From NCBI GenBank assembly GCA_046563655.1, contig CM102283.1:1116001-1180000 (forward strand): 64,000 nucleotides of DNA. The letters are read 5' to 3'. Every line of letters starts with the position of its first letter. The first letter of the stretch is position 1. Below the pieces are notes generated by a model that searched no databases, was not told the origin of the DNA, and worked only from the letters and a program-made list of their open reading frames with translations. This stretch comes from Yuukianura sp. NJ FZ-2021 (Eukaryota). The position numbers and the translations under genes were made by a program. Shown here one piece after another: positions 9,722-53,113 of the stretch.

Positions 9722-12348
9722 CCCGGATTCCAAGAGCAGAACAATAGTGGAAGCTCTCCAGGTCTCTCTTTAGCGAGAATTCCTTAATTGGAAATTTATT
9801 TATGAGATGTTATCTTTATTGAGAGTTCCTTAATTAGAAATTGGTTTGAGGAAGAATCTCTGGATGAAGGAAAAATCGCTGGGGAATGTAATTCCCCAAT
9901 TCCCGTGATACCATCTTAAACACTTGGAGCTTAACATCGGGAAATTTTCTTAATTGACTTTAATTTCGTTCTGCCCTTGAAATTTTCCTCTTTTTTTTAA
10001 CCTAATATTTGCAATTACTAATTATTGTGCATATTGTGCAATATTGCAGTGCAATTTACTAGTAGTACCTGCAACCATATTTTTTTTTAGATTTTTGTAT
10101 TTTTGGAAGTCCAGAATTTCAACTGATAATGTTTCGTTTTAATTACTCTGGGAACTTTTTTCCCACAGAAACGGAAAGACAAACTGATAAACTCATTAAA
10201 ATTAGACTTGAAGCTAATTTTCTCAGAAACCGAAGGAACATTTATTCTGTGCTATGAATAGCAGTTCTCGTTGCAAAGTGAGATACGGTAATAGGCCTAA
10301 TAAATTCTGCTAGAAGAACTGATTGGTACTTACTGATAGCGTATATAATAATTCAGAATATATAAATTTCGAAACAGAACCTTTTGGCAGTCTACTGGCA
10401 GTGCAGTATTATTCAATATCAAAGTGGTTGGTTACTCTACTAAGTTGCGAAGAATTGCTAAACGTCAAACAGCTAAAAAGTTTACTGATCTTTGAAGTGC
10501 AACAAAATGAAAGGTGACATCAATTTATGCATTCATAAGATAGTTAATATTATTTGTTAATAAGCCACTTCACGGCAATAGCAAAACATACTAATGCCAA
10601 TTCATTTTAATTTTCCTAAAATTTATACAAAGTGACTCGTACCGATTGGGTTTTGTAAATTTAAATACTAATTTGTCATTCAGCCCAGGATGTGTAGTAG
10701 AATATTCCATTGATGATAAAATACAACTTTTGAGCAATCCTGTACTTAAGCTGCAAAAGTTCTCTATAATATCATGCATTTTTAACTTAACCAAAGCTAA
10801 TTTGGGAATGAGACTCATATTAGTGTGAAATATTTCGAAATCATTCAACACTTGATTTGTACATGTTAGGTCCGGAGAGCTGGGTGACGTTGGCTAGGTG
10901 CGACGCGGATGCATGGGCGGCGACGGTGCTAGCAAGGTCAATTCGAAGGACTCTTACGACACGGCGACTCACAATTGCTATCTCTGAAAACGTCTCGCAA
11001 CCTATGAAGTAAAATTTTTCTAGTTAATTAATTTAGTGATCTTCAATATATTTTCCAGTATGTTTAATTCATACGGAACAAAACCAGCTAAAAACCACAA
11101 AATAAATTTTAGCACTAGTACAAACCAATCTAAACGCACATATATTATTGAAATACGTGAAAATTGTATGGAGACGATACATTTAAGTGGTTGTTAAAAG
11201 TGAATAATATGCCTAAAAATTTTAACTTTTCGTAATTTTATGCACAAATACATAGATTATACAGTATAAAGTATCTGGAGGTGTAACTGAAATTACTTTT
11301 TTATAGGGTTCTGTTACAACTGGATTTTGATTCCGTCGTGAGATTTGAATCGAGCGAAATAGGAAAGACGGGAAGTGAAATTTTTTGGCTATGGAACTTG
11401 CGGAGTTGGGAAAAATGTGTCTACGTCGATCCATATTCTTTCGTAAGCATTATATTTATAAGCACACATATATACTGAAATTCTTCTTTTAGTACATTCA
11501 ACTATTACAATGCATAATTACGGTGGCATTTCAGTTTTTATTGTAACGTAGGTAAGCAAGTATTCAGATGAATTGTTTGAAATGGCAACTTTTTCGGCGG
11601 TCGTCACCCGGAACCAAACGTCAAAATTTTCGACAGATATCTTCGTCTTTACTCCAAGTGCTCGGGAATTTGACGCACTTGTGGACTTGAACAATTCTGA
11701 CGGTAAAAATTTTCGTTACTTAAAACCGTCTCGTTCCGAAGAAATTTTGAAGAAATGAGTTTTGCTTGTGACCTACGCATGGCTAACTACAGTTTGATTT
11801 AACTAAATTTAGTTGACGTTAATGCGATACTCAACACTCGCTACAAACATTTGCTTCCAAATCCGAAACATCATATTCCACCGTCATTTTCGCTGAATTT
11901 AAAAGAGCCCGGCAACAACTCAAGGTATGCTGGATTTATATTATCTTATATATTGGTACTTATTATACATAAAGATATCTTCAAAGATGTTTACATAAAT
12001 AGAGAAAATTGTATATAATAACATATCCTACAGTCTTACGGGAACGAATATCATCATTTTTGGAGACTTGTTATGGAAGAAAAGCTGGAGTAATCATGAA
12101 AACTTCTATAAATGGACAGCAACCTTTGTACATGAAGTGATTCCTCAAATCAATCAACTAAAGGTAACAAACATTATTTATAACAATTTTTTAATAAAGC
12201 GGACTATCTAAATGAAAAGCATATTTTGGGAATTGTGGCGATTGGTCAGTTAGTCCCCACTGCCCATCGCCAGGATGGAGAGTGTATGAAGTGGCCCAGT
12301 CTCACTCCCATCACACACACCAGTTCCCTTCCCTGGACAAGCCAGATT

Positions 12349-12422
12349 GAACCGGTACCTCAATTGGTAGAGAGAGCAGCTTTCCGGAAAGAAAAGGTAT
12401 TGGTTCGAGTCCCACACGGTTC
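12349..12422 (+). other. tRNA-derived sequence (pseudo-tRNA/SINE-like) inside a ~250-bp copy-1-specific insertion in PKS intron 6
   Basis: A-box-like tacctcaattggtagag, B-box ggttcgagtcc, and acceptor-like gaaccg/cggttc pairing. The anticodon arm is degenerate. Absent from the same intron of copies 2 and 3. Confidence 0.6.
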
Positions 12423-15400
12423 CTTTATTTTTTCTGGCTTGTCCTTTGTTTCCCTTTATCCCTCTCCCAACTCCTTACAGACAGACAAACCAGGCCAGCA
12501 CGTAAAGTAGCTTTCGCTACTTAAAAACTTCAAACATTTCTAGCTCAAATAAACATTTAAATCAACAGAACCAAAATCACGTAGAAACACTCCTCAAGTC
12601 GCTCCACGAAAATCAACTTCCAATTTCTAATGGTCCGGCCACTACTCAAGCACCAAATTTAGACAACTTTGGGTACTTGAAAAACTCTGTTGCGGTAGTG
12701 GGTATGAGCTGCCGATTTCCTGGTGCTAACAACGCAGATGAATTTTGGGATTTACTTGTCAGCGGGAGAGATCCAATTCGAAAGTATCCGTCCGATCGTC
12801 CTCGGCCACCCAATCACACTCTGGAGAACGAAAAGACATTTGAGGCAGGATTTTTAAAATGTCCAGTTGATGAGTTTGATGCCAAATTTTTTGGAATTAG
12901 TCCCCGAGAAGCTCCGTTTGTGGACCCACAACAACGTCTTTTGCTGGAAGTGATTTGGGAAAGTCTGGAAAATGCGAACATCAATCCACTGGGCTTGCGT
13001 AAAAGCAACACTGGAGTTTTTGTTGGAGTTTGGCAACAAGAGTATGATCGACACTTTCCAGATACAACATTGAATGCTGACGAGTATCATCATCGCTACT
13101 TGGGAAATGCGTTCAGTGCTACTGCTTCTCGAATTTCCCATTTTCTCGGACTCTATGGACCAAACTATGCCATCGAGTACAAAATTATTTTCAAAAATTC
13201 AGAAAATTTGAAACTTTAAGGAACAGATTTTTTTTGTAGAAGCGGTTGTTCAAGTAGTTCCAGTGCCGTTCATCTTGCTTGTCAGAGTCTGCGCAGAGGT
13301 GAAAGTACAGTTGCAATCGCCAGTGGCGTAAACCTTGTACTCCATTTTGTGAATCCTCTTGCTGGCGACGACTCGGATGCTTTTGTGCTTTCTGGTGATT
13401 TTAGGTGCAAGACGTTTGATGAGAGGTAACAAATCCAAACATAAATAGACATAAGTTTGGGTAGTTTTCACTAAAACTGGTGTACTAGAATGTTGATGAA
13501 TAAGTAGCGGAAGATGAACCGTAGTCCACCGTGCTGTAACGTAGTGCAATCTGCACAAACACAGCGCTGCATAGCCGTCAAGAAATAATGGTTTTCAGTA
13601 TTAAAGAGATGGTTACGAAATAATTGTGGCTGACTTTCTAGACAGACGGACAAACAGACAGAACGGCTCAACAAATAAGTAGCTTTTGCTACTTTATAAA
13701 GAACATTTCGCTACATTTTAAAGAATTCATTTCACTAAAGTGGAAATGTTTGTATTTTTTTTTTAGAGCTAATGGGTTTGTACGTGCAGAGGGTTGTGGC
13801 GCCGTCGTGCTGAAACCGTTTATGAATGCCGTACGTGATGGTGACAATATCATTGGTTTAATCCGGGGAACAGCGTTGAATAATGATGGCCCAGCTACAA
13901 GTTTCGGAACTCCAAATGCGAAAGCGCAAGAACGAGTTTTCCGAGACGCTTTGAACGATGCAGGAGTGGCACCTAACGAAGTTAGCGTCGTTGAAGCTCA
14001 CGGAACAGGAACAATTGTTGGAGGTTAAATTGAACTTTTCTCTTTCTAGTCTGAATTGTAAAAAAATGGTCAATTTAAAAAAAAATTTCAGACCCAACCG
14101 AAATGTATGCCATCGGCCAAGTTTACTCAGACGGACGCAGTGAGCCACTCTTGGTTAGCTCAGTGAAGACGAATATTGGACATACAGAAGCATGCGCAGG
14201 AATGGCTGGACTAATCAAAATTCTGCTGTGTCTTAAGCACAAACAAGTCCCACCACATCTTCATCTTCAGAATCTCAATCCCAGGATTAACTTGGAAAAC
14301 ATTCCTGCAGTAATTCCAGTGAAGGTTACTGATTGGATTGCGGAAAAAAGAATTGCAGCAGTGAGCTCATTCAGCATGAGCGGCACCAATGTGCATCTCA
14401 TTGTTCAGGAAACTCCAAACGGCATAACTTCTTACGTCAAACCCAGCGTAAAGCCGTTGGAAATTATTGGAATTTGTGCCAAATCGGAAGAAGCTCTGGA
14501 AGCACTTTGTCAAAAGCACATTGCTCACTTGGAAGCAAATCCGAACCTTAATATCAGCGACATCGCTTGTACTCTGAACACCAGCAGAGCAACAATGCCT
14601 CATCGTATTGCTCTTGTTGCCAAGGATACAGCACAACTCGTTGCGAAACTACAGAGCAGGTCGTACGTAAATGGAAAAGCTGCGACACAAAAACCAAAAG
14701 TAGTTTTTCTATTTACGGGTCAAGGGTCACAATACTTTGGCATGAGCAAAAGTTTATATGAGACTTCATCTGTATTCAGAAGTGCTTTGAACCAATGCGA
14801 CACAGTTTTCAAGGCACACTTAAACTGTTCTCTTAAGCAAGTCCTTTGGGAAAATGATGCTATGTTGCAGGAAACAATTTATTGTCAACCGGCAATATTT
14901 TCAGTAGAGTTCTCCCTTGTACAGCTTTGGAATTCGTTTGGAATTTATCCTGACTTTGTTCTTGGACACAGCGTTGGTGAGTTCTGCGCCGCAGTGTGCG
15001 CAGGTCTGCTGTCATTGGAGGACGCAATGGCACTAGTTATTGGCAGAAGCAGACTTGTGGATTCACTTGAAGGTGGTAAGATGATGGTAGTCAAAACGTC
15101 TCCAGCCGAAACATATGGCTTGATCCAAGCATTTGCTGCCCAATCGAGTAATCGTTGGATAGATGTCGCTGCTGAAAATGCAATGGAGGAAGTTGTAGTT
15201 TCAGGTACAATAGAAAACGTTGAACAATTTGCTACGTTTTGTACATCACGTGGATTCAAAACCCAAGTCATCAGCGCTTCTCATGCTTTTCATTCTCGTG
15301 AAATGGATCCCGTTTTGAATGAATTTGGGCAAACAGCTTCTCAAATCTCTCACAAAACTCTCAATTTTCGATACATTTCTGGAACTTTGGCACGAGAATT

Positions 15401-17480
15401 GAATGTAATCGATTTTGATTGTTCTTATTGGGTAAGACATCTTCGAGACACCGTGAGGTTCTATGACGCTGTGATGCACTTTAATCGATTGATTGAAGAA
15501 CCAAAAGTATTTGTTGAAATCGGAAGTCAACCGACTCTATTGAGCTTGACGATGGCCAATCTACCTAACACTTCAACTGCAACATTTTGCCCTTCACTGC
15601 GCAAAAGTGAAGATGACCTGATGTGTATTTTGAGCTCTTTGTCCAAAATGTTTGTGGCTGGCGTAGATATATCTTGGGATAAATGGTATTCAGGAGCCAC
15701 AAAAATTTCGTTACCGACTTATCCGTTTCAGCGCCAAAAATTTTGGATTCGAAATGAAGACGATGGAATTCCACTTTCTCCACTGCTGCACCCCCTACTT
15801 GGACGACACGTACCATCTCCCGTGTCTGATCAGGTTTATGCGCAAGTACTGTCACCAAAAGAGTTAAAGTACGCAAGTGATCATCGCGTAGCAGAAAAAA
15901 TTATTCTGCCTGCCGCGGCTTACCTTGAAACAATCATGGCCGCCGGTTGTCAAGTTTTGCAGGGTGGAAAAGTCCATGTTCCATTCACAGTTGAAAATCT
16001 GCAAGTCGAAGCTCCGTTGGAACTCTCTAAATCCTGCCAAGTTCAAACCATTGTGCGCAGCCTCGGCGAACAAGATGATTTTAAGTTTGAAATTGGGATC
16101 CACAAACAACTTTCCCGCGAAAATTTAGACAAATGGAAAAGATACGCTGTTGCCGTATTTGGGCCCAGCCTTGATGTTGCCACTCATTCTAATATGGAAA
16201 TTTATGCAATTCAAGAACGGATGACTCCAACAGAATCAGTTGCAGAAGCATATGAAGGAATTGCAAAAGCTGGAATCCAGTTTGGACCAAAATTTCAGTC
16301 CATTGTTCATGCATGGAAGGGTGACACGGAACTACTCACTGAGATCCAAATCCCAAACGATTCGCACTCATACATTTGCCATCCAATTGTTTTGGATGCC
16401 ATGATTCAAACATTTGCACTTCGTACGGCATTGCTTTCTACTGAAAAACCAGAACTCCAACTTCAACTTCCAGTGAGCATCAAAAAGTTTACTTGGTTTT
16501 CACGTGAACCTTCACAAAAAGTCTATGCCTATAGTACCTGGAACACCGATGCGCAAAGTCAGGGAACCGTTTGTCTTCTGTCTGAAGCTGGGGAGACTTT
16601 AGGTGTCATGGAGGGTCTCGAGTTGGTCGTTACCACGGTAGCCAACTTTCTCCGCGTGCTAAACACTGAATCCAACTTGTTACCTGGATTCATGGAAGAA
16701 GTCTGGCGTCCAACTAGCGGAATTACACGAAACAGAATTGATCCAATGAAATTTCAGCTCCGACAATCAAAACATACTGCAGCAACAATGGCATTCATTA
16801 ACTCAGAAGTAGAACCTTACTATGAACATACTATGGAAGTTTTCAACAATGTACTTGTTTGTTGTCTACTTCGCGCAATCATTGAATGTCAATGGCCTTG
16901 GCCAAGTGTAGGCGCAACAATTCAAACTGATGACTGGGCTGCCGTGTCTCCGCCAGGCCTCCGTATTGCTAAAACTCCAAAACTGATGGAAATTCTAGAA
17001 ATTCATAATTTCATGAAAAAAGTTGACAACAACACGTTTAAAATTCTTAAAGAAATACCTTCCTTGAAAGAACTGGAAGATAAAATTGAGCTTGCATTCA
17101 AATCGGATGCCAAATTGATGACAAACATTGAATTTCAGTTTGCCAAAAGAACTGAGACGAATTTTACTGCGGTTCTCTCGGGATCCATTTCCCCAGTTCA
17201 GTACATGTTTTCAGAAGATATCACTGACGTCACAGGAGCTACAGTCCATGCTGAAAGTTAGCACTAAAACATGATATGATTCAGTATTATTGATAATATT
17301 GTAGTTGATTTATTTGAACTATTTTATTTTATGTTGAAATAGCCTTTGGTGCTCGTGAGACCGCCGAACTAGCAGCTAGCCAATTGGTTGATTTTGTCAG
17401 TTCCAGCGATAGAAGTTCCGACGTGCTGAGGATTCTGGAAGTTGGTGGTGGTTCTGGAGCAACGTGCGGATTTGTGATCG

Positions 17481-18422
17481 CGTAGCAGGTGAAATGGTCA
17501 AAACAATTTGGCCAAAAGTGAAATGATCAGAGGTGAAAAGGCCAGAAGTGAAATGGCCAAAGAGTGAAAATATCAGAATTGAAATGGCCAAAAAGTGAAA
17601 AGGCCAAAATCTAAAAACGCCAAAAAGAAATTGGCCAAAAAGTGAAATGACCAAAAAGTGAAAACGCCAAAAAGTGAAAAGGCCAAAATATGAAAAGGCC
17701 AAAAAGTGAAAAAACCAGAATTAGGAAAAAATTACTTTCAGTGGGTAACTCGCATTTTCTTTATTTTTTATTTTTATTTGCGAATATGACCCCCCTGACC
17801 ATGAAAAAAAATTTTTTGGCCCGCTTTCAAAAATTTCGAATTTTCGGGAAATTATGAAAAATGCAATTTCGCTATAAGGGCACACGTTAATTTTTTCTCA
17901 AAATAGGTCTTAGCTTATATTTTGTTAGGTTAGGTTATGTTTTTAAATGCTTAAGCAATTTTGATATAGCATTTAGGTTAGGTTTGGTTAACTTTCAAAA
18001 AATGGGATTTTTTTGTTTAGAAAAAGTTAACATGGAGTATTTTCCCATTTTTTACATCTTCTAAAAATTCGAAATATTTCAAGCAGATCGCAAAAAAATA
18101 TATTTTAGTGGCAGGGGGTCATATTTGTATTAAAAAAAATGTAGAAAACCGAGTTACCCACTGAAAGTATTTTTTTTCCTAATTCTGGTCTTTTCACTTT
18201 TTGGCCTTTTCATATTTTGGCCTTTTCACTTTTTGGCGTTTTCACTTTTTGGTCATTTCACTTTTTGGCCATTTTCTTTTTGGCGTTTTTAGATTTTGGC
18301 CTTTTCACTTTTTGGCCATTTCAATTCTGATATTTTCACTTTTTGGCCATTTCACTTCTGGCCTTTTCACCTCTGATCATTTCACTTTTGGCCAAATTGT
18401 TTTGACCATTTCACATGGAATC
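17481..18422. mobile_element. Non-autonomous foldback/TIR DNA transposon with 8-bp TSD, inserted in the PKS copy 1 MT exon
   Basis: TSD tgtgatcg at 17473-17480 and 18423-18430. Long inverted arms (near-perfect for ~270 bp, then imperfect) built of ggccaaaaagtgaaa subrepeats. Absent from copies 2 and 3. Confidence 0.92.
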
Positions 18423-21233
18423 TGTGATCGATCGATTGCAACAAGAAAACATTCCATTTCAGTACACATTTACCGACATTTCACCACTCTTTCTGCATGA
18501 GGCTAGCAAAAAGTTCACTAAAGGAGTGTCTTTCGCCGTGTTCAACATTGAAAACGATCCGATTGGTCAAGGGTTTTCTCCAGAAGAGTTTGACGTCATC
18601 ATTGCAACCAACGTGATTCATGCAACGGCAGACATTAGACAAACCCTGCGAAATTTGAATCTCGTACTCCGTAACAACGGACTTCTTATCATCGCCGAAA
18701 CATTTAAAGAACCAGAATCTCTGGTGCTCACATTTGGACTTTTGGACGGATGGTGGCGTTTTACCGACGACCGGAAAAGTTCTCCACTGTGTGCTGCAGA
18801 CCGTTGGAAACTCGGGTTTGAGCAAGAAGGATTTGACGAAATTGAAACAAAAGAAATATTTGGACCATATTGCGGAACTGTAGCTGGACGTAAAGTAAAA
18901 AATGGAAAACAAGAAGAGTCGGATTCAAACTCGTGGCTTTTTGTATCAGATGAATCCGAACTAGAAAACATTTTGAAAGAAAAAATGAAACTAGCTGGAC
19001 GGAAATGTTTGGAATTTTCGGAAGATGTTCCTCAAGGCCTTGAAGGAATCATGTTTCTTTGGACTTCTCCGACAGTTTACGAAGAAAATCAATTCAAGTG
19101 TCAACAATTGCTTCATTTTTGTCAAAAATTTGTATCGGCATATCAAGATTCCAAAATTAAACCTAAATTTATTTTGGTGACACGCGGTGTTTACTACTTG
19201 GGAGATGCGGGACCCGGAAATCCAAATTCATCAACAAGTACATCTTTTGTACGAACGTGGGCACATGAACACCCAGACTTCAATATAGCTTCGGTTGATC
19301 TTGACCAAGATGAACAGAATCCAGAACGAGAAGCAACCGAATTATTTGCAACGATTTGTTCCAAAGAAAAAGAAATGTTCAAAGCCATACGAGAAGACAA
19401 AGTTTTTATGCAACGACTTGTTGCTTTGAATAACAAAAACTTGGCAATTCCTTTGCCAAACTCAAATAGATTCAAAATCGTCAACCCACCGACCAAAAGT
19501 TTAAACGATTTGCAAATATCGGTTGCCCCAAAACTTGAACCAGTTCAGGACGAAGTTGAAGTTGCAATTCGTGCAACGGCACTTAACTTTCGTGATCTTT
19601 TTGTTATCTTACGTCCGGAGGGATTTGATCTTCCAGAAAATTTGAACACGGAACCAGGTCTGGACATATCTGGAATTGTATCAGCGGTTGGACCAAAATG
19701 TTCAAAATTCCAAATCGGAGATGAAGTATTTGGATACGTTTCAGGCGGAGGGTTGGCATCGCATGTTATAACGTCTTCGCAAATGCTAATTCGGAAGCCA
19801 CTGGAAATGACTTTCGCATCCGCAGCAACAATTCCTGTAGCATTTCTAACGGTTTACTATTCCTTCCACAAGTGCGCAAAACTTTCTTCTGGAGACAGAG
19901 TTTTGATTCATGTAGCCACAGGCGGCGTGGGTCTCGCTGCAATTCAAATGGCAAATATCATTGGCGCTGAAATTTTTGCCACGGCTGGAAGTAGGAGAAA
20001 GAGAGCGTACCTAAGATCAATTGGAATCAAACATGTCTACCATTCCAGGAATACGGATTTTGGTGATGAAATTTTGAGAGACACCGATGGAACAGGAGTA
20101 AACGTTGTACTAAATTCCTTGACTGGACCAAATTTTAAAGAAGCTTCACTCAAAGCTTGTGCTCAAGGCGGCAGATTTGTGGAAATTGGGAAAATTAATA
20201 TTTTCACGAAAGATGAAGTGAACAGTATGCGCCCTGATGTCAAATATTTTATAGTAGCACTTGATAAAAGTACTATGGAAGAACGAGAAGAATCGTATCG
20301 ACTCTCTGCTGCGGTGGAACAGGAATTTGAAAAAGGAATTTACAAAGGACTTCCGCATGACACGTTTTCTCTGGACATGATTCGAGAAGCTTTTTTCTAC
20401 TTTCAAGAAGCGAAACATATTGGGAAAATTGTTGTCACAATTCCAGAACCGAAGGCTTCCTCTGACGGAAAAATTTATTTCCAAAACAATCTTTTCAATT
20501 CACAAAGTACTTATCTCATCACTGGAGGTTTGGGTGGCATCGGAATTGAAGTTGCCAAATGGATGACTAAACTGGGAGCACAAAACATTGTCCTCGTTGG
20601 ACGAAATCCACCAACCAATAGCTGTCAAGAAGTTTTGAATCAGTTGAATGCTGGTGGTTGTCGCGTATTAGCTGTACAAGCTGACATTAGTGCGTACGCG
20701 GAATGCGAAACATTGCTGCAATCAATTGTAGATTTGAATTTTCCACCACTTCGTGGCATTATGCATGCAGCAGGAGTCTTGTCAGATGGAATTGTTGTGA
20801 ACCAATCGTGGGATAGATTCGAAGCAGTTTTTGCACCCAAAGTCAGAGGAACATGGAACTTACATAAATTGACTACTGGATACGACCTTGAATTTTTCAC
20901 AATGTTTTCAAGCATGGTGGCAATTCTTGGACTTCCTGGACAAAGCAATCATGCAGCAGCAAATAGATTTTTGGACTCGTTTACACACTACAGAAATTCA
21001 ATTGGTCTTCCTGCAAACAGCATAAATTTTGGTCCTTGGTCAGACGTGAGTCAAATTAATTTTTATGTAACTAACCGTGCAGTTTTTTACTCCTAACTGC
21101 AACAGGTTCTCTGTCTCTCTTTAAAACCATTTGCTGCGAATTGGTACATTGCTCCGAAAGTCAGATTGTTCCGAAATAATATTGTTTACTAACCTAACCA
21201 ACCCAAAGCTTGTGACTTAAAGCGCAACCTAAC

Positions 21234-21746
21234 CAGGGTTTAAAAAAACATGTTCAAAAATAAAAAAAACAAAACACCGTGTTTTTTTTGTTTAAAACAT
21301 GTTTTCTTTGTTTAAAACGTTTTTTTTAATTTTGTGCTTTCACGATTGAGAATTACACGGACAAATCCAATTAAGTCGCAAAGTGCCAGTTTTATGACAC
21401 AGAATATGACTTTAAGAATGTTGCCCGACTTTACTAACTTTCTAGATGCATCGATAATGAAAATAATTCAATGTCGGAATAACGACCTAAGAACGTTAAG
21501 AAGCAGACTCGTGTCTTTTCAACACAATTTTTACCATTTTTGGTTGACACTCCAGTTGGTTAATATAAAAGCCATGCAAAATCACCACACATGCATTTTC
21601 TGTAGCTTAATTGACTTTTTTCCTGAATTTTTGGAGCATTTTCTCATTTTGTTTTAAATCAAACATTTCGCCTTGTTTTAAACAAGTGTTTTAAACATGT
21701 TTTTAACACCAATTAAAAACATTTGATTTAAAACAACTTTACCCTG
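21234..21746. mobile_element. hAT-like MITE in the last intron of PKS copy 1
   Basis: Ends CAGGGT...ACCCTG, with 8-bp direct repeat aacctaac on both sides. Absent from the equivalent introns of copies 2 and 3. Confidence 0.7.
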
Positions 21747-39479: not shown

Positions 39480-39519
39480 TTTATTTTTGTTTAAGATGAT
39501 TCTTTACCATATGATCATT

Positions 39520-41241: not shown

Positions 41242-44200
41242 ATGAAAGGTGACAGCAATTTATACAAATATTCCTGATAATATTATTTATTAATAAAAAA
41301 AAATTCAGAGGAATAAGTTTTGTAAATAATTTGTTAAGCAACCCAGAATGAGTAAAAGATACAGTATTGTTCACAAAGAAGTAGGCTCGAATATGAATGA
41401 GATGGAAACATTTTTGGGAAGTCTACTTTTGTGTGAACAACCTTGTACATAAGCTGCAAGCTTTCTAGAATGACATACATTTTTAACTTAACCAAAGCTA
41501 ATTTGGGAGTGAGACGCAAATTAGTGTTGAATATTTCGAAATCATTCAACATTTCATTTGTACATGTTAGGTGCGGAGTGCTGGGTAACGTTGGCTAGGT
41601 GCGACGCGGATGCATGGGCGGCGACGGTGCTAGCAAGGTCAATTCGAAGGACTCTTACGACACGGGCACTCACAATTGCTATCTCTGAAAACGTCTCGCA
41701 ACCTATGAAGTAAAATTTTTCTAGTTAATTAATTTAATTTAATTATCTTTAGTGTATTTTCCAGTAAGTTCAATTCATACTGAACAAAGCCAGCTAAAAA
41801 CCACAAAATGAATTTTAGCACTAGGATATACAAACATAGAAATTTCAACTTTTCGTAATTTTATACATAAATACATAGATTATACAGTATAAAGTATCTG
41901 GAAGTTTAACTGAAATTCCTTTTCTATAGGGTTCTGTTACAACTGGATTTTGATTCCGTCATACGATTTGAATCAAGCGAAGTAGGAAAAACGGGAAGTG
42001 AAATTTTGTGGCTATGGAACTTGCGGAATTGGGGAAAATGTGTCTACATCGACCCATATTCTTTCGTAAGGATTAAATATTTTTAGGTGACAGCTAGTTT
42101 TTTGATTTTAGCACACATAGATACTCAAATTCTTCTCAGTACGTGTAAATATTACAATGCATATTTACGGAGGCTTTTCAGTTTCATATTCTAATGTAGG
42201 TAAGCAAGTATTCCGATGAATTATTTGAAATGCCAACTTTCTCGGCGGTCGTAACCCGGAACCAGACGTCAAAATATTCAACAGACATCTTCGTCTTCAC
42301 CCCGAGTACTCGGGAATTCGACGCACTTGTGGATTGGATCAATTCTGACGGTAAAAACTGTTCAATGCTTAAAACATTTCTATTCTGAAGAAATTTTACA
42401 GAAAAGAGTCTTACCCGAGTTAGTTACTGTAGGCAGGGGTTAACCGGAGTTTGATTATGCTAAATTTAGTTGATGCTAATGCGATACTCAACACTCACTA
42501 CAAACACTTGCTTCCAAATCCGAAACATCATATTCTACCGTCATATTCGCTGAGTTTGAAAGAGCCCGTCAACAACACAAGGTACAATGCGTTGTATTTT
42601 ATTTGTTGGAACTTATTATACAGGGTGTGGCACATAAACGTATACGCCTGAAATGCGTTGCTACGGGCAACTTGACCCAAACTGTTTAACATGTGGGGGA
42701 AACAAATACTCCCTAAAGTGTATCTCCCTCATTGATGGAAATTGGAAAAATTCCATAATATTGTTTTTTGCAAACACCATCACATCTTCTAACTTTCTAC
42801 AGAAGGACTTTTGGAAAAAGTCAGGATTAGGCTAACAAATTCACTAAAGTGCATTTTCCTTATTTATGGCTAATTTAAAAAATTCCAAAATATTGTTTTT
42901 GTAACACACCTAACTTGTACAGTATACTTTTGGAAAAAGCCACGACTGTGCTAAAATATTCCCTAGACTGTTTATTTGCTATAATTTCGCCGCATAATTC
43001 CTTAAATAAACAAAGAAATTATTTTCCCAGTGTCTACTTTTAAGTGCCACACCATGTATATAAAGATATCTTTAAATATGATTGTAAAAACAAAAATATT
43101 TTTATATAACAACTTATTTTACAGTCTCACGGGCACGAATGTCACCATTTTTGGCGAGTTCTTGTGGAAGAAAAGCTGGAATAATCATGAAATTTTTTAT
43201 AAATGGACAGCAACATTTGTACATGAAGTGATTCCTCAAATCAAACAACTGAAGGTAACAAACATTATTTAAACAATTTTGTAATAAAGCAAGTTCACTA
43301 GATGAAAGCATATTTCGGAAATGTTGGTAAATTTCCGTCAATGGACAGGCAGACAAAGAAGGCCGATACGTAAAGTAGCTTTCGCTACTTAGAAATTTAT
43401 ATTGTACAAGAATATTGTTAGCTCGAATGAAATTTAATTAAAATTAACAGAACCCAAGTCACGTAGAAACACTGCTCAAGTCGCTCCACGAAAATCAACT
43501 TCCTATTGCTAATGGTCCGGCCACTACTCAAACACCAAATTTAGAAAACTTTGGCTACTTGAACAACTCAGTTGCAGTAGTGGGCATGAGCTGCCGATTT
43601 CCTGGTGCTAACAGCGCAGATGAATTTTGGGATTTACTCGTCAGTGGAAGAGATCCAGTTCGAAAGTATCCGTCCGATCGTCCTCGGCCACCCAATTACA
43701 CTCTGGAGAACGAAAAGACATTTGAGGCAGGATTTTTAAAATGTCTAGTTGATGAGTTTGATGCCAAGTTTTTTGGAATCAGTCCCCGAGAAGCTCCGTT
43801 TGTGGACCCGCAACAACGTCTTTTGCTGGAAGTAATTTGGGAAAGTCTGGAAAATGCGAACATAAATCCACTGGGCTTGCGTGAAAGCAAAACGGGAGTT
43901 TTTGTTGGAGTTTGGCAGCAAGAGTATGATCTTCACTTTCCAGATACAACATTCAATGCTGATGAATATCATCATCGATACTTGGGAAATGCTTTCAGTG
44001 CAACTGCTTCTCGAATTTCACATTTTCTTGGACTCTATGGACCAAACTACGCCATCGAGTATAAAATTAATTTCCAATAGACTGAGAAAAGTTGAAACTT
44101 GTAATAACTTTGATTATTTTTTTTGTAGAAGCGGTTGTTCAAGTAGTTCCAGTGCTGTCCATCTTGCCTGTCAGAGTCTGCGCAGAGGTGAAAGCACGGT

Positions 44201-47200
44201 TGCAATCGCCAGTGGCGTAAACCTCGTACTCCATTTTGTCAACCCCTTGCTGGCGACGACGGCGACGCTGTTGTGCTTTCCAGTGATTTTAGGTGCAAGA
44301 CATTTGATGAGAGGTAACAAACCCGAACATAAATAGACATAGATTTGGATAGTTTTAAAAAAATACCGGAATGTTGATAAAGAAGTAGCAAAAGATGAAC
44401 TGCAGTGCACCGGGCCGTAACGTAGTGCAATGTACACAAACATAACGCTGTGTAGCCGTCACGAAATAAGGGTTTCCATTATTAACGAGATGATTACAAA
44501 ATAATTGCGGCTGACTTTCTAGACAGACAGACGACAAACGGACAGAAAGTCTCGACTAATATTAAGTAGCTTTCGCAACTTAATAAAGAAAAATAACATT
44601 TCATTTGAAAAAGAACTCATTTCATTAAAGTAGAAATTTTTGTATTTTTTTTAGAGCTAATGGGTTTGTACGTGCAGAGGGTTGTGGCGCGGTCGTGTTG
44701 AAACCGTTTATGAATGCCGTACGTGATGGTGACAATATCATTGGCTTAATCCGGGGAACGGCGTTGAATAATGATGGCCCAGCTACAAGTTTTGGAACAC
44801 CAAATGCGAGAGCTCAAGAACGTGTTTTCCGAGACGCTTTGAACGACGCTGGAGTAGCACCTAACGAAGTTAGCGTCGTTGAAGCTCACGGAACAGGAAC
44901 AGTTGTTGGAGGTTAAATTGAATTTTTCTCTTTCTAGTCTAAATTGTAAAAAAAAATGGTCAATTTTAAAAAAAATTCAGATCCAACCGAAATGTATGCC
45001 ATCGGCCAAGTTTACTCAGAGGGACGCAGTGAGCCACTCTTGGTTAGCTCAGTGAAGACGAACATTGGACATGCAGAGGCGTGCGCAGGAATGGCTGGAC
45101 TAATCAAAATTCTGCTGTGTCTTAAGCACAAACAAGTCCCACCACATCTTCATCTTCAGAATCTCAATCCCAGGATTAACTTGGAAAACATTCCTGCAGT
45201 AATTCCAGTGAAGGTTACTGATTGGATTGCAGAAAAAAGAATTGCAGCGGTGAGCTCATTCAGCATGAGCGGCACCAATGTGCATCTCATTGTTCAGGAA
45301 ACTCCAAACGGCATAACTTCTTACGTCAAACCCAGCGTAAAGCCGTTGGAAATTATTGGAATTTGTGCCAAATCGGAAGAAGCTCTGGAAGCACTTTGTC
45401 AAAAGCACATTGCTCACTTGGAAGCAAATCCGAACCTTAGCATCAGCGACATCGCTTGTACTTTGAACACAGGCAGAGCAACAATGTCTCATCGTATTGC
45501 TGTTGTTGCGAAGGATACAGCACAACTCGTTGCGAAACTACAGAGCAGGTCGTACGCAAACGGAAAAGCTCCAACACAAAAACCAAAAGTAGTTTTTCTA
45601 TTTACGGGTCAGGGGTCACAGTATTTTGGCATGAGCAAAAGTTTATATGAGACTTCATCTGTATTCAGAAGTGCTTTGAACCAATGCGATATAATTTTCA
45701 AGTCACACTTAAACTGCTCCCTCAAACACGTTCTTTGGGAAAATGATGCTATGTTGCAAGAAACAATTTATTGTCAACCGGCAATATTTTCTGTAGAGTT
45801 CTGTCTCGTCCAGCTTTGGAATTCATTTGGAATTTATCCTGACTTTGTCCTTGGACACAGCGTTGGTGAGTTCTGCGCCGCAGTGTGCGCAGGTCTGTTG
45901 TCATTGGAGGATGCGATGACACTAGTTATTGGCAGAAGCAGACTTGTGGATTCACTTGAAGGTGGCAAAATGATGGTAGTCAAAGGTACTCCAGCCGAAA
46001 CATGTCGCCTGATCCAAGCATTTGCTGCTCACTCAAGCAACGGTTGGATAGATGTCGCTGCTGAAAATGCAATGGAGGAAGTTGTAGTTTCAGGAACAAA
46101 GGAAAACGTTGAAGAATTTGCTTCGTTCTGTACATCGCATGGACTCAAAACACAAGTCATCAGCGCTTCACATGCCTTTCATTCTCGTGAAATGGACCCA
46201 GTTTTGAATGAATTTGGACAAATAGCATCACAAATATCACGAGGAAGTCTCACTTGTCGATACATTTCTGGAACTTTGGCGCGAGAACTGAATGAAATCG
46301 ACTTTGATGGTTCTTATTGGGTGAGACACCTTCGAGACACTGTGAGGTTCTACGACGCCGTGAATCACGTAAGTCGATTAACTGAAGAACCAAAAGTATT
46401 TGTTGAAATTGGAAGTCAGCCGGTTCTATTGAGCTTGACGATGGCCAATCTACCTAACACTTCAACTGGAACATTCTGTCCTTCACTGCGCAAAAGTGAG
46501 GACGACCTCATGTGCATTTTGAGCTCTTTGTCCAAAATGTTTGTGGCTGGCGTAGAAATATCTTGGGATAAATGGTATTCAGGAGCCATAAAAATTTCCT
46601 TGCCGACTTATCCGTTTCAGCGCCAAAAATTTTGGATTCGAAATGAAGACGACGGAATTCCACTTTCTCCACTGCTTCATCCATTACTTGGACGTCACAT
46701 GCCATCTCCCGTGTCTGATCAGGTTTATGCGCAAGTGCTTTCACCTAAAGAGTTAAAGTACGCATGCGATCATCGTGTAGCAGAAAAATTATTCTGCCAG
46801 CCGCCGCTTACCTTGAAACAATCATGGCGGCTGGTTGTCAAGTTTTGCAGGGCGGAAAAGTCCATGTGCCATTCACTGTTGAAAATCTCCAAGTAGAAGC
46901 TCCGTTGGAACTCACTAAATCCTGCCAAGTTCAAACCGTAGTGCGCAGTCTCGGGGAGCAAGGTGACTTCAAATTTGAAATTGGGATCCACAAACAACTT
47001 TCCCGCGAAAATTTAGACAAATGGAAAAGATATGCTGTTGCCGTCTTTGGGCCCAGCTTGGATGTGGCCACCCATTCTACTATGGAAATTCATGAAATTC
47101 AGGAACGCATGACCCCGACGGAGTCAGTTGCAGAAGCATATGAAGGAATTGCAAAAGCTGGAATCCAGTTTGGACCAAAATTTCAGTCAATCGTTCAAGC

Positions 47201-50200
47201 ATGGAAGGGTGGCACGGAACTACTAACTGAGATTCAAATTCCAAACGATTCGCACTCATACATTTGTCATCCAATTGTTTTGGATGCCATGATTCAAACA
47301 TTTGCACTCCGTACGGCCTTGCTTTCTACTGAAAAACCAGAGCTCCAACTTCAGCTTCCAGTACAAATCAAAAAGTTTACTTGGTTTTCACGAGAACCTT
47401 CACCAAAAGTCTATGCCTATAGTACCTGGAACGCCGATTTGCAAAGTCAGGGAACCGTTTGTCTTCTGTCTGAAGCTGGGGAGACATTAGGTGTAATGGA
47501 GGGTCTGGAACTAGTTGTTACCACGGTAGCCAACTTCCTCCGTGTGCTGAACACTGAAACCAATTTATTACCCGGATTTAACGAAGAAGTCTGGAGACCC
47601 ACTAGCGGAATTACACGTAACAGACTAGATCCAACGCAATTTCAACTCCGGTCGTCAAAACATACTGAAGCAACAATGGAATTCATTAATTCAGAAATAG
47701 AACCTGAATTAGAACAGGCTTTGGTAGTTGTCAACAACATCCTTGTTTGTTATCTACTTCGCGGAATCATTGAATGTCATTGGCCTTGGCCAAGTGTAGG
47801 CGGAACAATTAAACCTGAGGACTGGGCTGCCGTAGCTCCGCATGGCTTACTGATTGCCAAAACTCCGAAATTGATGGAACTTCTAGAAATTCATAATTTC
47901 ATGAAACGAGTTGACGACAACACGTATGAAATTCTCAAAAAAATACCTTCCTTGAAAGAACTGGAAGACAAAATTGAGTTTGAATTCAAAAAGGATGCCA
48001 AATTGATGAAAGAAGGGACCTTCGGATATCAGTTTGCCAAAAGAACTGGAAGGAATTTTACAGCGGTTTTGGCGGGATCCATTTCTCCAGTCCAGTACAT
48101 GTTCTCAGAAGATACTAATGACGTCACAGGAGCCACATTTCATGCGGAAGGTTAACACTAAAACATAATTATAATATAATTAATATAATTAGTCAAATTA
48201 TTTCATTTTATATTCAGCATTTGGAGCTCGTGAGACAGCTGAGCTAGCAGCTAGCCAACTAGTTGATTTTGTGATTTCCGACCAAAAGAGCTCAGGAGTG
48301 CTAAAGATACTGGAAGTTGGCGGTGGTTCTGGCGCAACGTGTGGATTTGTGATTGATAGATTGCAACAAGAGAACATTCCATTTCAGTACACGTTTACAG
48401 ACATTTCACCACTATTTCTGCATGAAGCAAGCAAAAAGTTCACTAAAGGAGTGTCTTTTGCGGTGTTCAACATCGAAAACGATCCGATTGGTCAAGGATT
48501 TTGTCCAGAAGAGTTTGACGTCATCATTGCAACTAACGTGATTCATGCAACGGCCGACATTAGACAAACCCTGCGAAATTTGAATCTCGTACTCCGTAAC
48601 AACGGACTTCTTATCATCGCTGAAACATTTAAAGCACCGGATTATTTGGTGCTCACCTTCGGATTTTTGGACGGATGGTGGCGTTTTGCAGACGACAGGA
48701 GAGATTCTCCACTGTGTACTGCGCAGCATTGGAAACTGGCATTTGAAAAAGAAGGATTTGGTGACATAGAAACCAAGCATATACTTGGTGTATATTGTGG
48801 AACTGTAGTTGGACGGAAAGTAAAACATGGGCCACAAGAAGCGGCTGATTCAAAGACGTGGCTTTTTGTATCAGATGAATCCGAACTAGAAAAAATTTTA
48901 AAACAAAAAATTAAACTAGCTGGACGGAAATGTTTAGAATTTTCAGAAGATGTTCCTCAAGGCCTTGAGGGAGTCATGTTTCTCTGGACTTCTCCGACAG
49001 TTTACGAAGAAAATCAGTTGAAATGTCAGCAACTGCTTTATTTTTGTCAAAACTTTGTATCGGCATATCAAGATTCCAAAACTAAACCCAAATTTATTTT
49101 GGTGACACGCGGGGTTTACTATATAGGAGATGCAGGACCCGGGAATCCAAATTCATCAACGAGTACGTCGTTTGTGCGAACGTGGGCACACGAACATCAA
49201 GATTTCAATATAGCTTCGGTTGATCTTGACCAAGATGAGGAGAATCTAGAACGAGAAGCAACCGAATTGTTTGCAACGATTTGCTCCAAAGAAAAGGAAA
49301 TGTTCAAGGCTATTCGCGAAGACAAAGTCTTTGTCCAACGACTTGTTGCTTTGAATAACAAAAACTTGGCAATTCCTTTGCCAAACTCAAATAGATTCAA
49401 AATCGTCAACCCACCGACCAAAAGTATAAACGATTTGCAAATATCGGTTGCCCCAAGAATTGAACCAGTGGAGGACGAAGTTGAAGTTGCAATTCGTGCA
49501 ACAGCACTTAACTTTCGTGATCTCTTTGTTATCCTACGTCCAGAAGGATTCGATCTTCCAGATGACATCATCTCAGATCCGGGTTTGGATATCGCTGGAA
49601 TTGTGTCAGCAGTTGGACCAAAATGTTCCAAGTTTCAAATCGGAGACGAAGTATTTGGATATGTTCCAGGCGGAGGCTTAGCATCTCATGTTGTAGCATC
49701 TTCACAAAAATTAATTCGGAAACCAAAAGAAATGACTTTCACATCCGCTGCAACAATTCCTGTAGCATTCCTTACAGTTTACTATTCATTTCACGAGTGC
49801 GCAAAACTTGCCGTTGGAGAGAGTGTTCTGATTCATGTAGCCACAGGCGGTGTGGGTCTCGCAGCAATCCAAATGGCAAATATTATTGGCGCCGAAATTT
49901 TTGCAACTGCGGGAAGTAAGAGGAAAAGAGCATATCTGAGATCAATCGGAATCAAACATGTTTATCACTCCAGGAATACGGATTTTGGCGAAGAAATTTT
50001 AAGAGACACAAACGGAGCAGGAGTAAACGTTGTGCTAAATTCCTTGACTGGACCAAATTTCAAAGAAGCTTCGCTCAAAACTTGCGCTCAGGGTGGTAGG
50101 TTTGTGGAAATAGGGAAAGTTAATACCTTCACGGCAGAAGAAGTGAAGAGTCTGCGCCCTGATGTGAAATATTTTCTAATAGAACTTTCCATAACTACTG

Positions 50201-53113
50201 CAGAAAAAAAAGAGGAATTGGATCAACTCTACTCGGCAGTGGAACAGGAATTTGAAAAAGGCATTTACAAAGGACTTCCGCATGATACGTTTTCTCTGGA
50301 TATGATTCGAGAAGCTTTTTTCTACTTTCAAGAAGCGAAACATATTGGGAAAATTGTGGTCACAATTCCAGAACCGAAGGTTTCTCCTGACGGAAAAATT
50401 TATTTCCAAAATAATCTTTTCAATTCACAAAGTACTTATCTCATTACTGGAGGTTTGGGTGGCATCGGAATTGAAGTTGCGAAATGGATGACCAAACTGG
50501 GAGCGCAAAACATTGTTGTCGTTGGACGAAATCCACCAACCAATAGCTGTCAAGAAGTTTTGAATCAGATGAATGCTGGAGGTTGTCGCGTATTAGCTGT
50601 ACAAGCTGACATTAGTGCGTACGAGGAATGCGAAACATTGCTGCAATCAATTGTAGATTTGAATTTTCCACCACTTCGTGGCATTATGCATGCTGCAGGA
50701 GTATTGTCAGATGGAATTGTGATGAACCAATCGTGGGATAAATTCGAAGCAGTTTTTGCACCAAAAGTCAGAGGAACATGGAACTTACACCAATTGACTA
50801 CTGGTTACGACCTGCAATTTTTCACAATGTTTTCAAGCATGGTGGCAATTCTTGGACTTCCTGGACAAAGTAACCATGCAGCAGCAAATAGATTTTTGGA
50901 CTCGTTTACACACTACAGAAATTCCATTGGACTTCCTGCAAACAGCATAAATTTTGGTCCCTGGTCAGACGTGAGTCATTGTAGTTTATATCTATAGGCA
51001 ATATTTTGTCAATAGCTATTTGTTGTTTACTCCTAATAATTAGGAGTAAACATTCACACTTATTGTGAATGGTTCCATGCCATTGCTCCGAATGAATTGC
51101 TACGACACATTTTGCTCCGAAAGGTAAATTACTCCGAAAGTCAGATTGTTCCGAAATAGTATTGTTTACTAACCTAACATTACCTGGTGCCTTAATCGGG
51201 GAAATTTACCTTTCGGAGCAATTATTTTTGTGGCAATTCAATCGGAGCAATTGGGTGCTTCCATTGTAAATCGGATTAAATTTTATTTTTTAACGAAATT
51301 TAAGAATAAAAACAGTTGGGCTAAAAAACTGTTTTTGATTTGGTAGATCGGAGTTGCAGCAAATCTTAAAGCAGCGGAGAGTGGTATACTTGGCATACGC
51401 TATTTTACTCCATCGCAAGGTCTAAATTCAATTGAAAGAATCCTTCGAACACAGCGGCGTCATGTAATGGTGGCGGAAATCTGTGATTCTAACAGCCTTA
51501 GACAACTTTGTCGTTTGGGAAACTATTTCAACGAAATGAAACTGCACGTCACTCAAAGCGGAATTGGATTGGAGGCATACAAAGCCATAATTGACGACAT
51601 TAAAAACTCAGCTCCGGAAACACGCCAAGAAAAAATTGAAGACTTTTTGGAAAAAGCAATCAAGGAAACATTACGAATTCCTGAAAACGAGCAGTTGGAT
51701 CGAGACCAAAATTTTTCTGAAATCGGAGTCGATTCACTCATGGCAATGGAACTGCGCAACCGCCTCCAAGGAATGTTGGGAGACAAGCAACTGACTGTAA
51801 GTGCTCTGCAGGAAAACCGAACCATACGAACCTTATCGGCCCATATGGCCCATCTTATGAACCCCGATGCATCGGTCGTTTCGGTTGAAGATTTGGTGGC
51901 GAAAGATTTAATTTTGGATCCTGAGATCCGACCCACGTCAAAACCAGCTTCAAAACCAAGCGAATTCAAAGACATTTTGTTAACTGGAGCGACGGGTCAT
52001 TTGGGGGTCAACCTTATCCCGATGCTGCAAAATGAAAATCCAAATTTAACAATTCATTGCATTGTGCGCGGCAAGAATTCAGAGGAAGTGGAAAGCCGCT
52101 TGAAGGAAACTCTTCAATTGTATTCTCTGCTTGAAAAAGTCAATTTTCAAAAAATTCGAGTTTTTGCTGGAGATTTATCCAAAACCAGTTTCAATTTACC
52201 TGCAGAAGAATACAAAGAATTGGCAGAGAAGATTGACGCCGTCCTACACTGTGCTGTTAAATCAAACCATTTAGAGGAGTACAACTCATTCGGTGAAGGG
52301 AGTTTGCGCAGTAACAATGTTGGGGCTACAGTAAACGTTTTACGTTTTGCTTGTACAGGAAATACTAAACCTGTTCTCTATGCGTCGTCGTTGCTAGCGG
52401 CGACTAGTGTAGCGGACGACGGCTCTTTGGCAGAAGATTTTCCTACCGTTGGTGACGTTGGGTCGTCCATTAAAAATGGCTACACGCTTTCAAAATTTGT
52501 TTCCGAAAATCTGATGTCGCAAGCAAGTGAACGTGGAATTCCGGTAACAGTCGTACGGTACGCAAGTATTTTTGGAAACAGTTTAACCGGATTTGTTCCA
52601 ACCGAGAAAAATCATGTGTGGGGAATCCTCTCTTCTTGCATTCGAGTGAGGAAATTTCCTACTATGGGTCAAAATGGAATTCCAATTATGGCGGTTGACA
52701 CTGCGGCGCAAGTCACTGCACAAATCTTCTTACGAGATTCGATGGAGACTGGAGTCTACAACTTGACAAGTTCATCTTCAATATCCGAAGAGGGCATTGC
52801 ATCTGTGTTTTCAAAATATGGAATTGAAGGGGAATTTGTGACGCTCTCGGAATGGCGGGATTTAGTTTTTGAAGAACTTGACAAAAATGAGCTTGGTCCA
52901 TTTGTTAGCCTTTATGGAGACGATGAGAAGACGCAGACGCTAAGCTACCTTGGAGTTCATCCTCTGGCAAACCAAATCTCTGCTCTGAAGTTTAATTCTG
53001 TCAGTGACAAATTACGACGAAACTGTCCAGATTTTGAGAAAAGTATTGTTCCAATTGACAAACTTTTAGGACAACATCTTGAGTACCATTATGAACTTAC
53101 ACGAAAGCATTAA
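41242..53113 (+). CDS. GT8(glycogenin-like)-KS-AT-DH-cMT-ER-KR-ACP-R polyketide synthase, copy 3, with two 1-bp homopolymer indels. Exons 41242-41248, 41571-41709, 41930-42065, 42200-42350, 42470-42581, 43125-43254, 43451-44058, 44129-44313, 44655-44911, 44981-48150, 48218-50970, 51347-53113
   Basis: Same structure and motifs as copies 1 and 2. Frameshifts only at ~44243 (C run) and ~46785 (A run). Confidence 0.82.
42621..43056. mobile_element. Tc1/mariner-like MITE in intron 5 of PKS copy 3
   Basis: TIRs cagggtgtggcac / gtgccacaccatg with flanking TA. Absent from copies 1 and 2. Confidence 0.8.

Follow-up and report, generated by a model that had tools for sequence, protein, structure and literature searches.

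The question raised by this locus is what kind of polypeptide precedes the ketosynthase (KS) of three tandem polyketide synthase (PKS) genes in an animal genome. The genes are in a 64,000 nt stretch of the Yuukianura sp. NJ FZ-2021 assembly (GenBank accession number GCA_046563655.1, contig CM102283.1, positions 1,116,001 to 1,180,000, forward strand), here termed the window, to which all coordinates refer unless another contig is named. An earlier note, made from the letters of the window, had described them as in-frame fusions of a glycogenin-like domain of glycosyltransferase family 8 (GT8) with a reducing PKS that ends in a reductase. The analysis reported here points with good confidence to a modified form of this reading, namely that each gene directs the synthesis of one chain comprising a glycogenin-derived pseudoenzyme, a linker and a bacterial-type reducing PKS. 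The N-terminal portion of about 225 aa would be descended from animal glycogenin (GT8, GT-A fold), and a linker of about 38 aa would join it to the PKS.

Structure of the three tandem genes

The three genes extend over positions 10507-23749 (copy 1), 26709-38615 (copy 2) and 41242-53113 (copy 3). That there are three tandem copies was supported by tblastn searches with six copy 1 exon translations, which returned exactly three colinear sets, with amino acid identities to the copy 1 exons of 81–96% in copy 3 and 74–91% in copy 2. All eight peptide strings quoted in the earlier note were found in the plus-strand frames of copy 1, at the places given for them. The exons are as follows, the inner PKS exon ends of copy 1 (13240-23749) being approximate.

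10507-10513, plus strand: copy 1 exon 1, ATG and 4 nt (M, K and the first base of G), donor GTGACA
10870-11008, plus strand: copy 1 exon 2, glycogenin-like residues ~3-49
11307-11442, plus strand: copy 1 exon 3, degenerate DxD site VDPYSF
11552-11702, plus strand: copy 1 exon 4, DELF...FVFTPS block
11813-11924, plus strand: copy 1 exon 5, AILNT and HHIPPSFSL
12034-12163, plus strand: copy 1 exon 6, completing the N-terminal domain, with a phase-0 donor
12569-13176, plus strand: copy 1 exon 7, 38-aa linker and N-terminal part of the KS (Pfam PF00109, E 1.1e-44)
13240-23749, plus strand: remaining PKS of copy 1, beginning with the KS Cys exon, placed by Pfam, motifs and a guide alignment to the homologue P0005
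14079-17258, plus strand: copy 1 KS_C-AT-DH exon, followed by cMT-ER-KR
22001-23749, plus strand: copy 1 ACP-R exon, including the stop
26709-26715, plus strand: copy 2 putative exon 1, ATGAAAG, donor changed to TT
27126-27264, plus strand: copy 2 exon 2
27582-27717, plus strand: copy 2 exon 3, INPYSF, the first Asp lost as well
27893-28043, plus strand: copy 2 exon 4
28149-28254, plus strand: copy 2 exon 5, 6 nt shorter, in frame
28349-28478, plus strand: copy 2 exon 6
28677-38615, plus strand: copy 2 linker and PKS to the stop
41242-41248, plus strand: copy 3 exon 1
41571-41709, plus strand: copy 3 exon 2
41930-42065, plus strand: copy 3 exon 3, IDPYSF
42200-42350, plus strand: copy 3 exon 4
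42470-42581, plus strand: copy 3 exon 5
43125-43254, plus strand: copy 3 exon 6
43451-44058, plus strand: copy 3 exon 7, linker and start of the KS
43451-53113, plus strand: copy 3 linker and PKS to the stop

Copies 1 and 3 gave seven-exon models with a single open frame from the ATG (10507 and 41242, respectively) into the KS, and in both of them the GT-AG, in-phase splicing into the KS exon claimed for all copies was found at every junction. In copy 2 the claim fails at the first exon only, as the 7-nt exon 1 precedes TT and not GT; exon 5, starting at 28149, is 6 nt shorter with the frame kept, and the other exons are like those of copies 1 and 3. The junctions between exons 6 and 7 (12163/12569, 28478/28677 and 43254/43451) all hold at the sequence level. 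The count of six exons upstream of the KS is correct provided that the 7-nt exon 1 (ATGAAAG) is included, and a mini-exon of this type (ATGAAAN/GT) is common to copy 1, copy 3 and the distantly related contig L001 described below. An alternative in-frame start closely precedes exon 2 in copies 1 and 3 (at 10863 in the former), whereas no such ATG was found in copy 2. The spliced product consists of a 225-aa N-terminal domain and the 38-aa linker, followed by the KS.

The six exons are not a product of chance, as the ratio of nonsynonymous to synonymous substitution rates (dN/dS) across exons 1-6 is 0.26–0.29 between copies (Fisher p 2e-8 to 3e-6) while the introns have diverged to 17–76% identity. 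Values were 0.21–0.27 for exons 1-4 and 0.29–0.43 for exons 5-6 (p 0.002–0.04).

Each repeat might instead consist of two genes, one for an independent glycogenin-like protein of about 240 aa, with intron 6 retained or polyadenylated, and one for a separately transcribed PKS, the in-phase join being accidental. The join of exon 6 to exon 7 is a prediction from the DNA, read-through of the exon 6 donor meets a stop about 16 codons on (manual reading), and a 221-aa member of the clade, P0121, is found on a short contig. Against this, none of the three copies has an ATG ahead of the KS core in the KS exon. In copy 1 the frame of this exon opens at 12506 with no Met before ...AVVGM, and the acceptor is preceded by just 12 nt of open frame in copy 2 and 3 nt in copy 3, so that upstream coding exons are needed. 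Moreover, the phase-0 junction is present at the same place in L001, for the Folsomia candida genome the OXA and the XP records, which are separate annotations, both have the domain joined to the KS, and the whole unit has been duplicated twice. A pair of genes in each repeat is accordingly considered highly unlikely.

Two introns of copy 1 are longer than their counterparts. Intron 6 is 405 nt (12164-12568) compared with 198 nt in copy 2 and 196 nt in copy 3, and the extra ~200 nt hold a GGTTCGAGTCC-like box, which we take to be reminiscent of a tRNA-derived short interspersed element. No tRNA was detected in this intron by ARAGORN, and its 22-mer is unique within the window. The last intron (21094-22000) is about 907 nt, compared with about 364 nt in copy 2 and about 352 nt in copy 3, and includes a 113-aa open frame (21316-21654) that has no Pfam match and no counterpart in copies 2 and 3. 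The extra sequence in the last intron is probably another insertion.

Homology of the N-terminal domain to glycogenin

The assignment of the first ~225 aa to the glycogenin type was borne out as homology by hidden Markov model (HMM) and PDB searches. When exon 2 alone was compared with the PDB sequences, all 19 matches (up to E 10) were glycogenin-1 or -2, over residues 5-48 and with a best E of 0.023, and a four-sequence profile of exon 4 likewise matched glycogenins only (19 of 19, residues 108-150, best E 0.0088). An exon 2 profile, made from the three copies and L001 (four sequences), gave 140 matches at E ≤ 1e-3 among 1.84 billion representative proteins. Thirty of these, comprising all 28 of at least 200 aa and two shorter ones, were scanned with Pfam; 22 passed the Glyco_transf_8 gathering score, two were sub-threshold GT8 matches, two were repeat proteins that look false, three had no family and one (P0203) was a PKS. 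The named GT8 matches were metazoan glycogenins, from Littorina, Paramacrobiotus, Dracunculus, Ascaris, Gryllus and Rotaria, together with F. candida glycogenin-1. No longer homologues (82-2000 aa) were found when sought with exon 2.

A glycogenin HMM was then made from the first 300 aa of 19 of the 22 Pfam-verified sequences, omitting three that were short or partial. The spliced domains scored 74.4 (copy 1), 72.8 (copy 3) and 70.0 bits (copy 2) and were aligned from positions 3-4 to 154-171. Because the sequences in the HMM had been chosen through exon 2, residues 1-49 were removed and the search repeated, giving 40.4 (copy 1), 39.1 (copy 3) and 33.8 bits (copy 2), the highest score among 200 shuffles being 6.1 bits. 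When the domain was aligned with 15 glycogenins in MAFFT, it was colinear with them to its end, the last 80 aa being aligned weakly, and the alignment reproduced the parallels listed in the earlier note (ILN, the LP-F-YN block, the KPW block and the WW helix). As judged from the sequence comparisons, homology to glycogenin was demonstrated over about residues 2-155.

The fold was assessed by predicted structure on a stand-in, P0121, the closest contiguous relative (221 aa, sharing 44% identity with copy 1 across 199 aa). Its AlphaFold2 (AF2) model had a mean predicted local distance difference test score (pLDDT) of 83.5 and the top Foldseek matches were glycogenins (TM 0.84, E 1.6e-21; LgtC, E 1e-9), as for a GT-A fold.

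Two further features of the exon 2 matches were recorded. When the 140 were sorted roughly by hand, about 23 proved to be of a degenerate type that does not have the Gly of the G-A-L-V-L block; this type includes the best-scoring P0121-P0129, mostly short metagenome fragments. Among matches P0130-P0260, 26 of 111 of the glycogenin type and 12 of 29 others stop exactly at the last column of the profile, as expected from read-through of a GTAA or GTGA donor, which hints that the glycogenin genes of many eukaryotes may have an intron at the position of intron 2 here.

Loss of catalytic residues

The metal site, FLDAD in glycogenins, was found to be VDPYS in copy 1, INPYS in copy 2 and IDPYS in copy 3, and LDPTC, LNSNS and LDCNC, respectively, in L001, P0121 and the F. 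candida protein P0203. The DxD motif is thereby read as D-P-Y in copies 1 and 3, N-P-Y in copy 2 and D-P-T in L001. In passages of a published study (PMC5203857), this motif, the site at which Mn2+ and the UDP-sugar are bound, is described as essential for coordination of Mn2+ and present in all GT8 enzymes, and the D102H replacement as abolishing autoglucosylation.

The MAFFT alignment with the 15 glycogenins revealed the loss of the TK Lys (replaced with E), of the NSG (STD), DGGDQG (DVDVNA) and HF (GD) blocks and of both acceptor-loop Tyr residues, and about 14 aa are deleted from the loop preceding the TK motif. The TK Lys, the NSG, DGGDQG and HF-G-KPW blocks and the loop with the self-glucosylated Tyr all have recognised roles in glycogenin, and Asp159, Asp162 and Tyr194/195 are named in the titles of glycogenin PDB entries. 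Eighty-five alignment columns are invariant across 14 or more of the 15 glycogenins, and of these 30 are kept in copy 1, 28 in copy 2, 30 in copy 3 and 39 in P0121. Hence, relative to glycogenin-1 and -2 (GYG1/GYG2; CAZy GT8; PDB 1ll2, 3t7m and 4ueg), with which it is colinear over 225 aa, the window domain differs in having no DxD, no acceptor Tyr and no C-terminal tail, in the loop deletion, in keeping only 28–30 of the invariant positions and in being fused to a PKS.

It could be argued that the domain is still an active glycosyltransferase of an unusual, metal-independent or re-tooled kind, acting on the PKS product or on the synthase itself, since a GT-A fold is predicted from the stand-in P0121, several blocks of the nucleotide site are retained (an initial VTL, DELF, FVF-PS and ILN) and the domain is under purifying selection. 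However, Tyr stands in place of the second Asp of the DxD in all three copies, and in copy 2 the first Asp has also given way to Asn, the NSG, DGGDQG and HF blocks, the TK Lys and both loop Tyr are replaced, and the replacements differ among the window, L001, P0121 and F. candida, which is unlike a new conserved active site. We attach very little probability to such an activity, and the proposal in the earlier note that an active glycosyltransferase glycosylates the product could not be upheld, the DxD and most glycogenin-invariant residues being gone. On the residues present, the domain is very probably a pseudoenzyme and no working glycosyltransferase. As it is homologous to glycogenin and fails the functional definition of GT8, it is named glycogenin-derived and not a GT8 enzyme.

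The polyketide synthase part

The order of domains downstream, given earlier as KS, acyltransferase (AT), dehydratase (DH), methyltransferase (MT; the C-methyltransferase, cMT), enoylreductase (ER), ketoreductase (KR), acyl carrier protein (ACP) and a terminal reductase (R), was confirmed by Pfam, the reductase belonging to NAD_binding_4. Copy 1 carries the KS Cys, HGTGT and N-GH, GHSVG with HAFH in the AT, GVDSL in the ACP, and TGATGHLG and Y-x3-K in the reductase, all of which have known functional meanings in these domains. Both the domains and the motifs are those of a type I highly reducing PKS with reductive release.

The best PDB matches of the KS_C-AT-DH exon were CurL (373 bits), modules of DEBS (~290 bits) and mycocerosic acid synthase (MAS, 231 bits), which have the same domain order with cMT, ER and KR. 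The mollusc EcPKS1/2 gave 142 bits, and no animal fatty acid synthase (FAS) was among the best 60 PDB matches listed for this exon. By these comparisons the PKS part is of the bacterial type and not animal-FAS-like. It differs from bacterial cis-AT reducing or iterative PKSs in that the window genes bear introns, are in an animal genome with animal-type neighbours, and encode one module only, which begins with a glycogenin-derived region and ends in a reductase.

Membership of the animal FAS-like PKSs (AFPKs) was considered and rejected, as the KS-AT is closer to bacterial PKSs (373 versus 142 bits). The AFPKs, represented by the sacoglossan EcPKS1/2 (PMC10764717), are likewise type I PKSs encoded by animals, and their products are methyl-branched polyketide lipids; they are a far weaker match to the window PKS, and a term search of that paper gave no mention of a glycosyl- or glycogenin-type domain.

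The predicted PKS would be of the bacterial type, type I, malonyl-specific, C-methylating and fully reducing, ending in the ACP and an NAD(P)H thioester reductase. These last two domains imply release as an aldehyde or alcohol, and the chain would leave as a methyl-branched, saturated fatty aldehyde or alcohol. According to the main text of the F. candida genome paper (PMC5490193), that genome has 30 type I PKS clusters and most of the cluster genes were called horizontally transferred, which by analogy makes a horizontal origin of the present PKS family plausible.

Related fusions

The in-frame fusion to a reducing PKS was also found outside the window, in the diverged contig L001 and in F. 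candida gene models. A homologue search with the AT-DH exon returned mostly multimodular bacterial PKSs, and only P0005 was close. P0005 led to L001, a 13-kb metagenome contig with a PKS 48–55% identical to those of the window. Upstream of its KS, colinear matches to exons 2, 3, 4 and 6 were detected (E 7e-16, 6e-13, 7e-4 and 0.004, respectively), and the same search found no match to exon 5. The ATGAAAN/GT mini-exon is present and the intron phases are equal at junctions 1, 2, 3, 4 and 6 (manual reading). The resulting seven-exon model, in which the exon 5/6 boundaries were chosen by the analyst, is in frame to the KS with GT-AG at all six introns (62–141 nt):

604-610, 691-826, 889-1024, 1117-1270, 1345-1443, 1585-1727 and 1791 onward: exons of L001 (contig coordinates)

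The N-terminal domain of L001 is 225 aa long and scored 90.5 bits against the glycogenin HMM. Its PKS ends in the ACP, and no reductase was found in 3.4 kb downstream (9167-13231 region). In a second contig, L003, matches were confined to the region from DH to KR and fell in several frames; neither a KS nor an N-terminal domain was found in the 6.8 kb upstream.

P0203 is the F. candida protein XP_035716828.1, which has an exon-2-like segment at residues 7-49 and a KS from residue 239. OXA63741.1, XP_035709867.1 and OXA62037.1 are its paralogues and are encoded on the same 28.5-Mb contig. The N-terminal domains of the F. candida proteins, which like those of the window are glycogenin-like, have no DxD and directly precede the KS, scored 39–45 bits against the glycogenin HMM. 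OXA62037.1 (3160 aa) consists of this domain, KS, AT, DH, ER, KR, ACP and NAD_binding_4; no methyltransferase was among the Pfam matches listed for it, whereas the window PKSs have a cMT. Identity to the window proteins was 26–35% in the large PKS exons and 34–38% in the N-terminal domain, and a homologue search with the N-terminal domain of P0261 returned only the two F. candida clusters. Given the 26–35% identity, the fusion is either old or of more than one origin.

The F. candida PKSs are annotated as erythronolide synthase or PikA1-like and their N-terminal domain is unnamed. The lack of annotation is explained by Pfam, which gave no match to P0121 even with the limit set at E ≤ 10; as the domain escapes Pfam, the fusion cannot be seen in current records, those of F. 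candida among them. The architecture had been noted earlier as unrecognised. This stands for the literature, no paper on a glycogenin- or GT8-PKS fusion having been found in the main texts searched, but not for the databases, as it is present unlabelled in public F. candida records. A term search of PMC5490193 gave no such fusion; its Additional file 1, covering 36 F. candida clusters, might describe these genes. The fusion is therefore contained in unrecognised database entries and in no paper found.

Lesions in the copies

Each copy proved to carry lesions that the earlier note does not mention. The cMT exon of copy 1 is interrupted by a transposon, and the reading frame is broken in both copy 2 and copy 3.

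17479-18427: foldback or MITE-like (miniature inverted-repeat) transposon of 949 bp in the copy 1 cMT exon, with an 8-bp target duplication TGTGATCG

The transposon is directly after the S-adenosylmethionine (SAM)-binding LEVGGGSG...CGFVI stretch, and a stop follows immediately after ...CGFVIA, while copies 2 and 3 read straight through the insertion site. It has 246-nt terminal inverted repeats, 98% complementary, and internal short repeats, and no second copy of it was found within the window. Relative to copy 1, single-base frame breaks are present at a shared site in the KS exon (~29469 in copy 2 and ~44242 in copy 3), with further breaks at ~31610 and ~35714 in copy 2 (three in total) and at ~46784 in copy 3 (two in total).

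These lesions raise the possibility that the array consists of decaying pseudogenes and that no copy now makes a full synthase. Copy 1 is interrupted by the transposon with its immediate stop, copy 2 has its frame broken at three places, has lost the exon 1 donor and offers no other in-frame ATG, and copy 3 has its frame broken at two. On the other hand, dN/dS is 0.13–0.22 in every PKS segment and every pair of copies, with no stops. This includes copy 2 versus copy 3 downstream of the shared break (0.15–0.22) and the linker and PKS of copy 2 (0.14–0.22), and, with exons 1-6 included, all parts of the genes are under purifying selection (dN/dS 0.13–0.43). All five breaks fall in homopolymers, in runs of 4–6 identical bases, which is the error pattern of long-read assembly, and at the shared break one added C restores exactly the protein of copy 1. 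Given these positions and the low dN/dS downstream, the frame breaks in copies 2 and 3 are probably assembly errors. Since its arms are 98% alike, the transposon insertion is young and perhaps polymorphic, and an in-frame cryptic splice that could remove it is predicted from the sequence. Decay of the whole array is therefore judged unlikely.

Points bearing against a single functional chain

A number of observations weigh against the reading of each gene as one chain with a glycogenin-derived, non-catalytic domain. As assembled, no copy reads through, and copy 2, having lost the exon 1 donor, is without an evident start. Splicing of exon 6 to exon 7 in vivo is predicted from the DNA. The Glyco_transf_8 match to Pfam that had been expected was not obtained, with none of five single exons matching GT8 at E ≤ 10 and no such match for the closest contiguous relatives, P0121 and P0203. 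Exon 3, alone or as a profile, had no glycogenin match in the PDB, and exons 5-6 alone (~80 aa) scored like shuffles. P0121 is a 221-aa protein on a contig of 1,051 nt, so that free-standing forms may exist. Metal-independent GT-A enzymes are known, which makes the inactivity of the domain a strong inference and not a measurement, and its role as a non-catalytic module is likewise deduced. We nevertheless retain a single fused chain as the likely product of each gene.

Other features of the window

The window is eukaryotic, with a G+C content of ~38% and intron-bearing genes, and the genes other than the PKS array are of animal type.

6642-8006: sugar transporter
56018-56389 and 58724-59143: two tandem pancreatic-type lipase fragments, just 3' of the PKS array
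60052-61138, minus strand: scramblase, downstream of the PKS array
62053-63816: CYP2-clan-like P450, closest solved relatives CYP2R1, CYP1A2 and CYP2D6

A CYP4-type P450, as for aldehyde decarbonylation, was considered for the last gene and ruled out, the closest relative being CYP2R1. At the other end, positions 3-4578 have long plus-strand open frames with a strong skew of A over T, and 2485-4578 encodes a 697-aa low-complexity protein rich in Ser, Gln and Thr, with short tandem repeats and no Pfam family.

Proposed role and significance of the domain

As the domain is conserved and under selection, it probably contributes to assembly, loading or localisation of the synthase. It may be a structural module atop the KS dimer, serving in dimerisation, scaffolding or binding of a partner or ligand. 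Glycogenin itself is a dimer, and docking or dimerisation would be a more likely kind of role than glycosylation. A dimer prediction for two N-terminal domains of P0203 (residues 1-238) scored 0.00 with the alignment not used and was uninformative either way. With regard to origin, a horizontally acquired bacterial PKS would have captured exons of the host glycogenin gene, those exons supplying the start codon.

A more far-reaching proposal, which we hold to be distinctly improbable, is that the domain represents a new class of PKS N-terminal domain, in which a re-used GT-A nucleotide pocket holds the acyl-CoA or the chain, or the domain tethers the synthase to a cell structure. The pocket would then select or hold a starter acyl-CoA, or the growing or released chain. 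If this were true, it would have been the capture of the host glycogenin that made a horizontally acquired bacterial PKS into a family of expressed animal genes, one old enough for its members to be now ~30% identical.

For PKS enzymology, no GT-A pseudoenzyme has been described as a type of N-terminal domain in the literature searched. For chemical ecology, a methyl-branched, reduced aldehyde or alcohol would suit the unusual cuticular lipids of soil arthropods, this link to a product being speculation. For evolution, the genes are an apparent chimera of exons from an animal housekeeping gene, glycogenin, and a bacterial-type PKS in an animal genome, in which the captured exons apparently keep an ancestral intron position. 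With such a chimera, the route by which biosynthetic genes gained by horizontal transfer come to function as genes of an animal can be put to the test.

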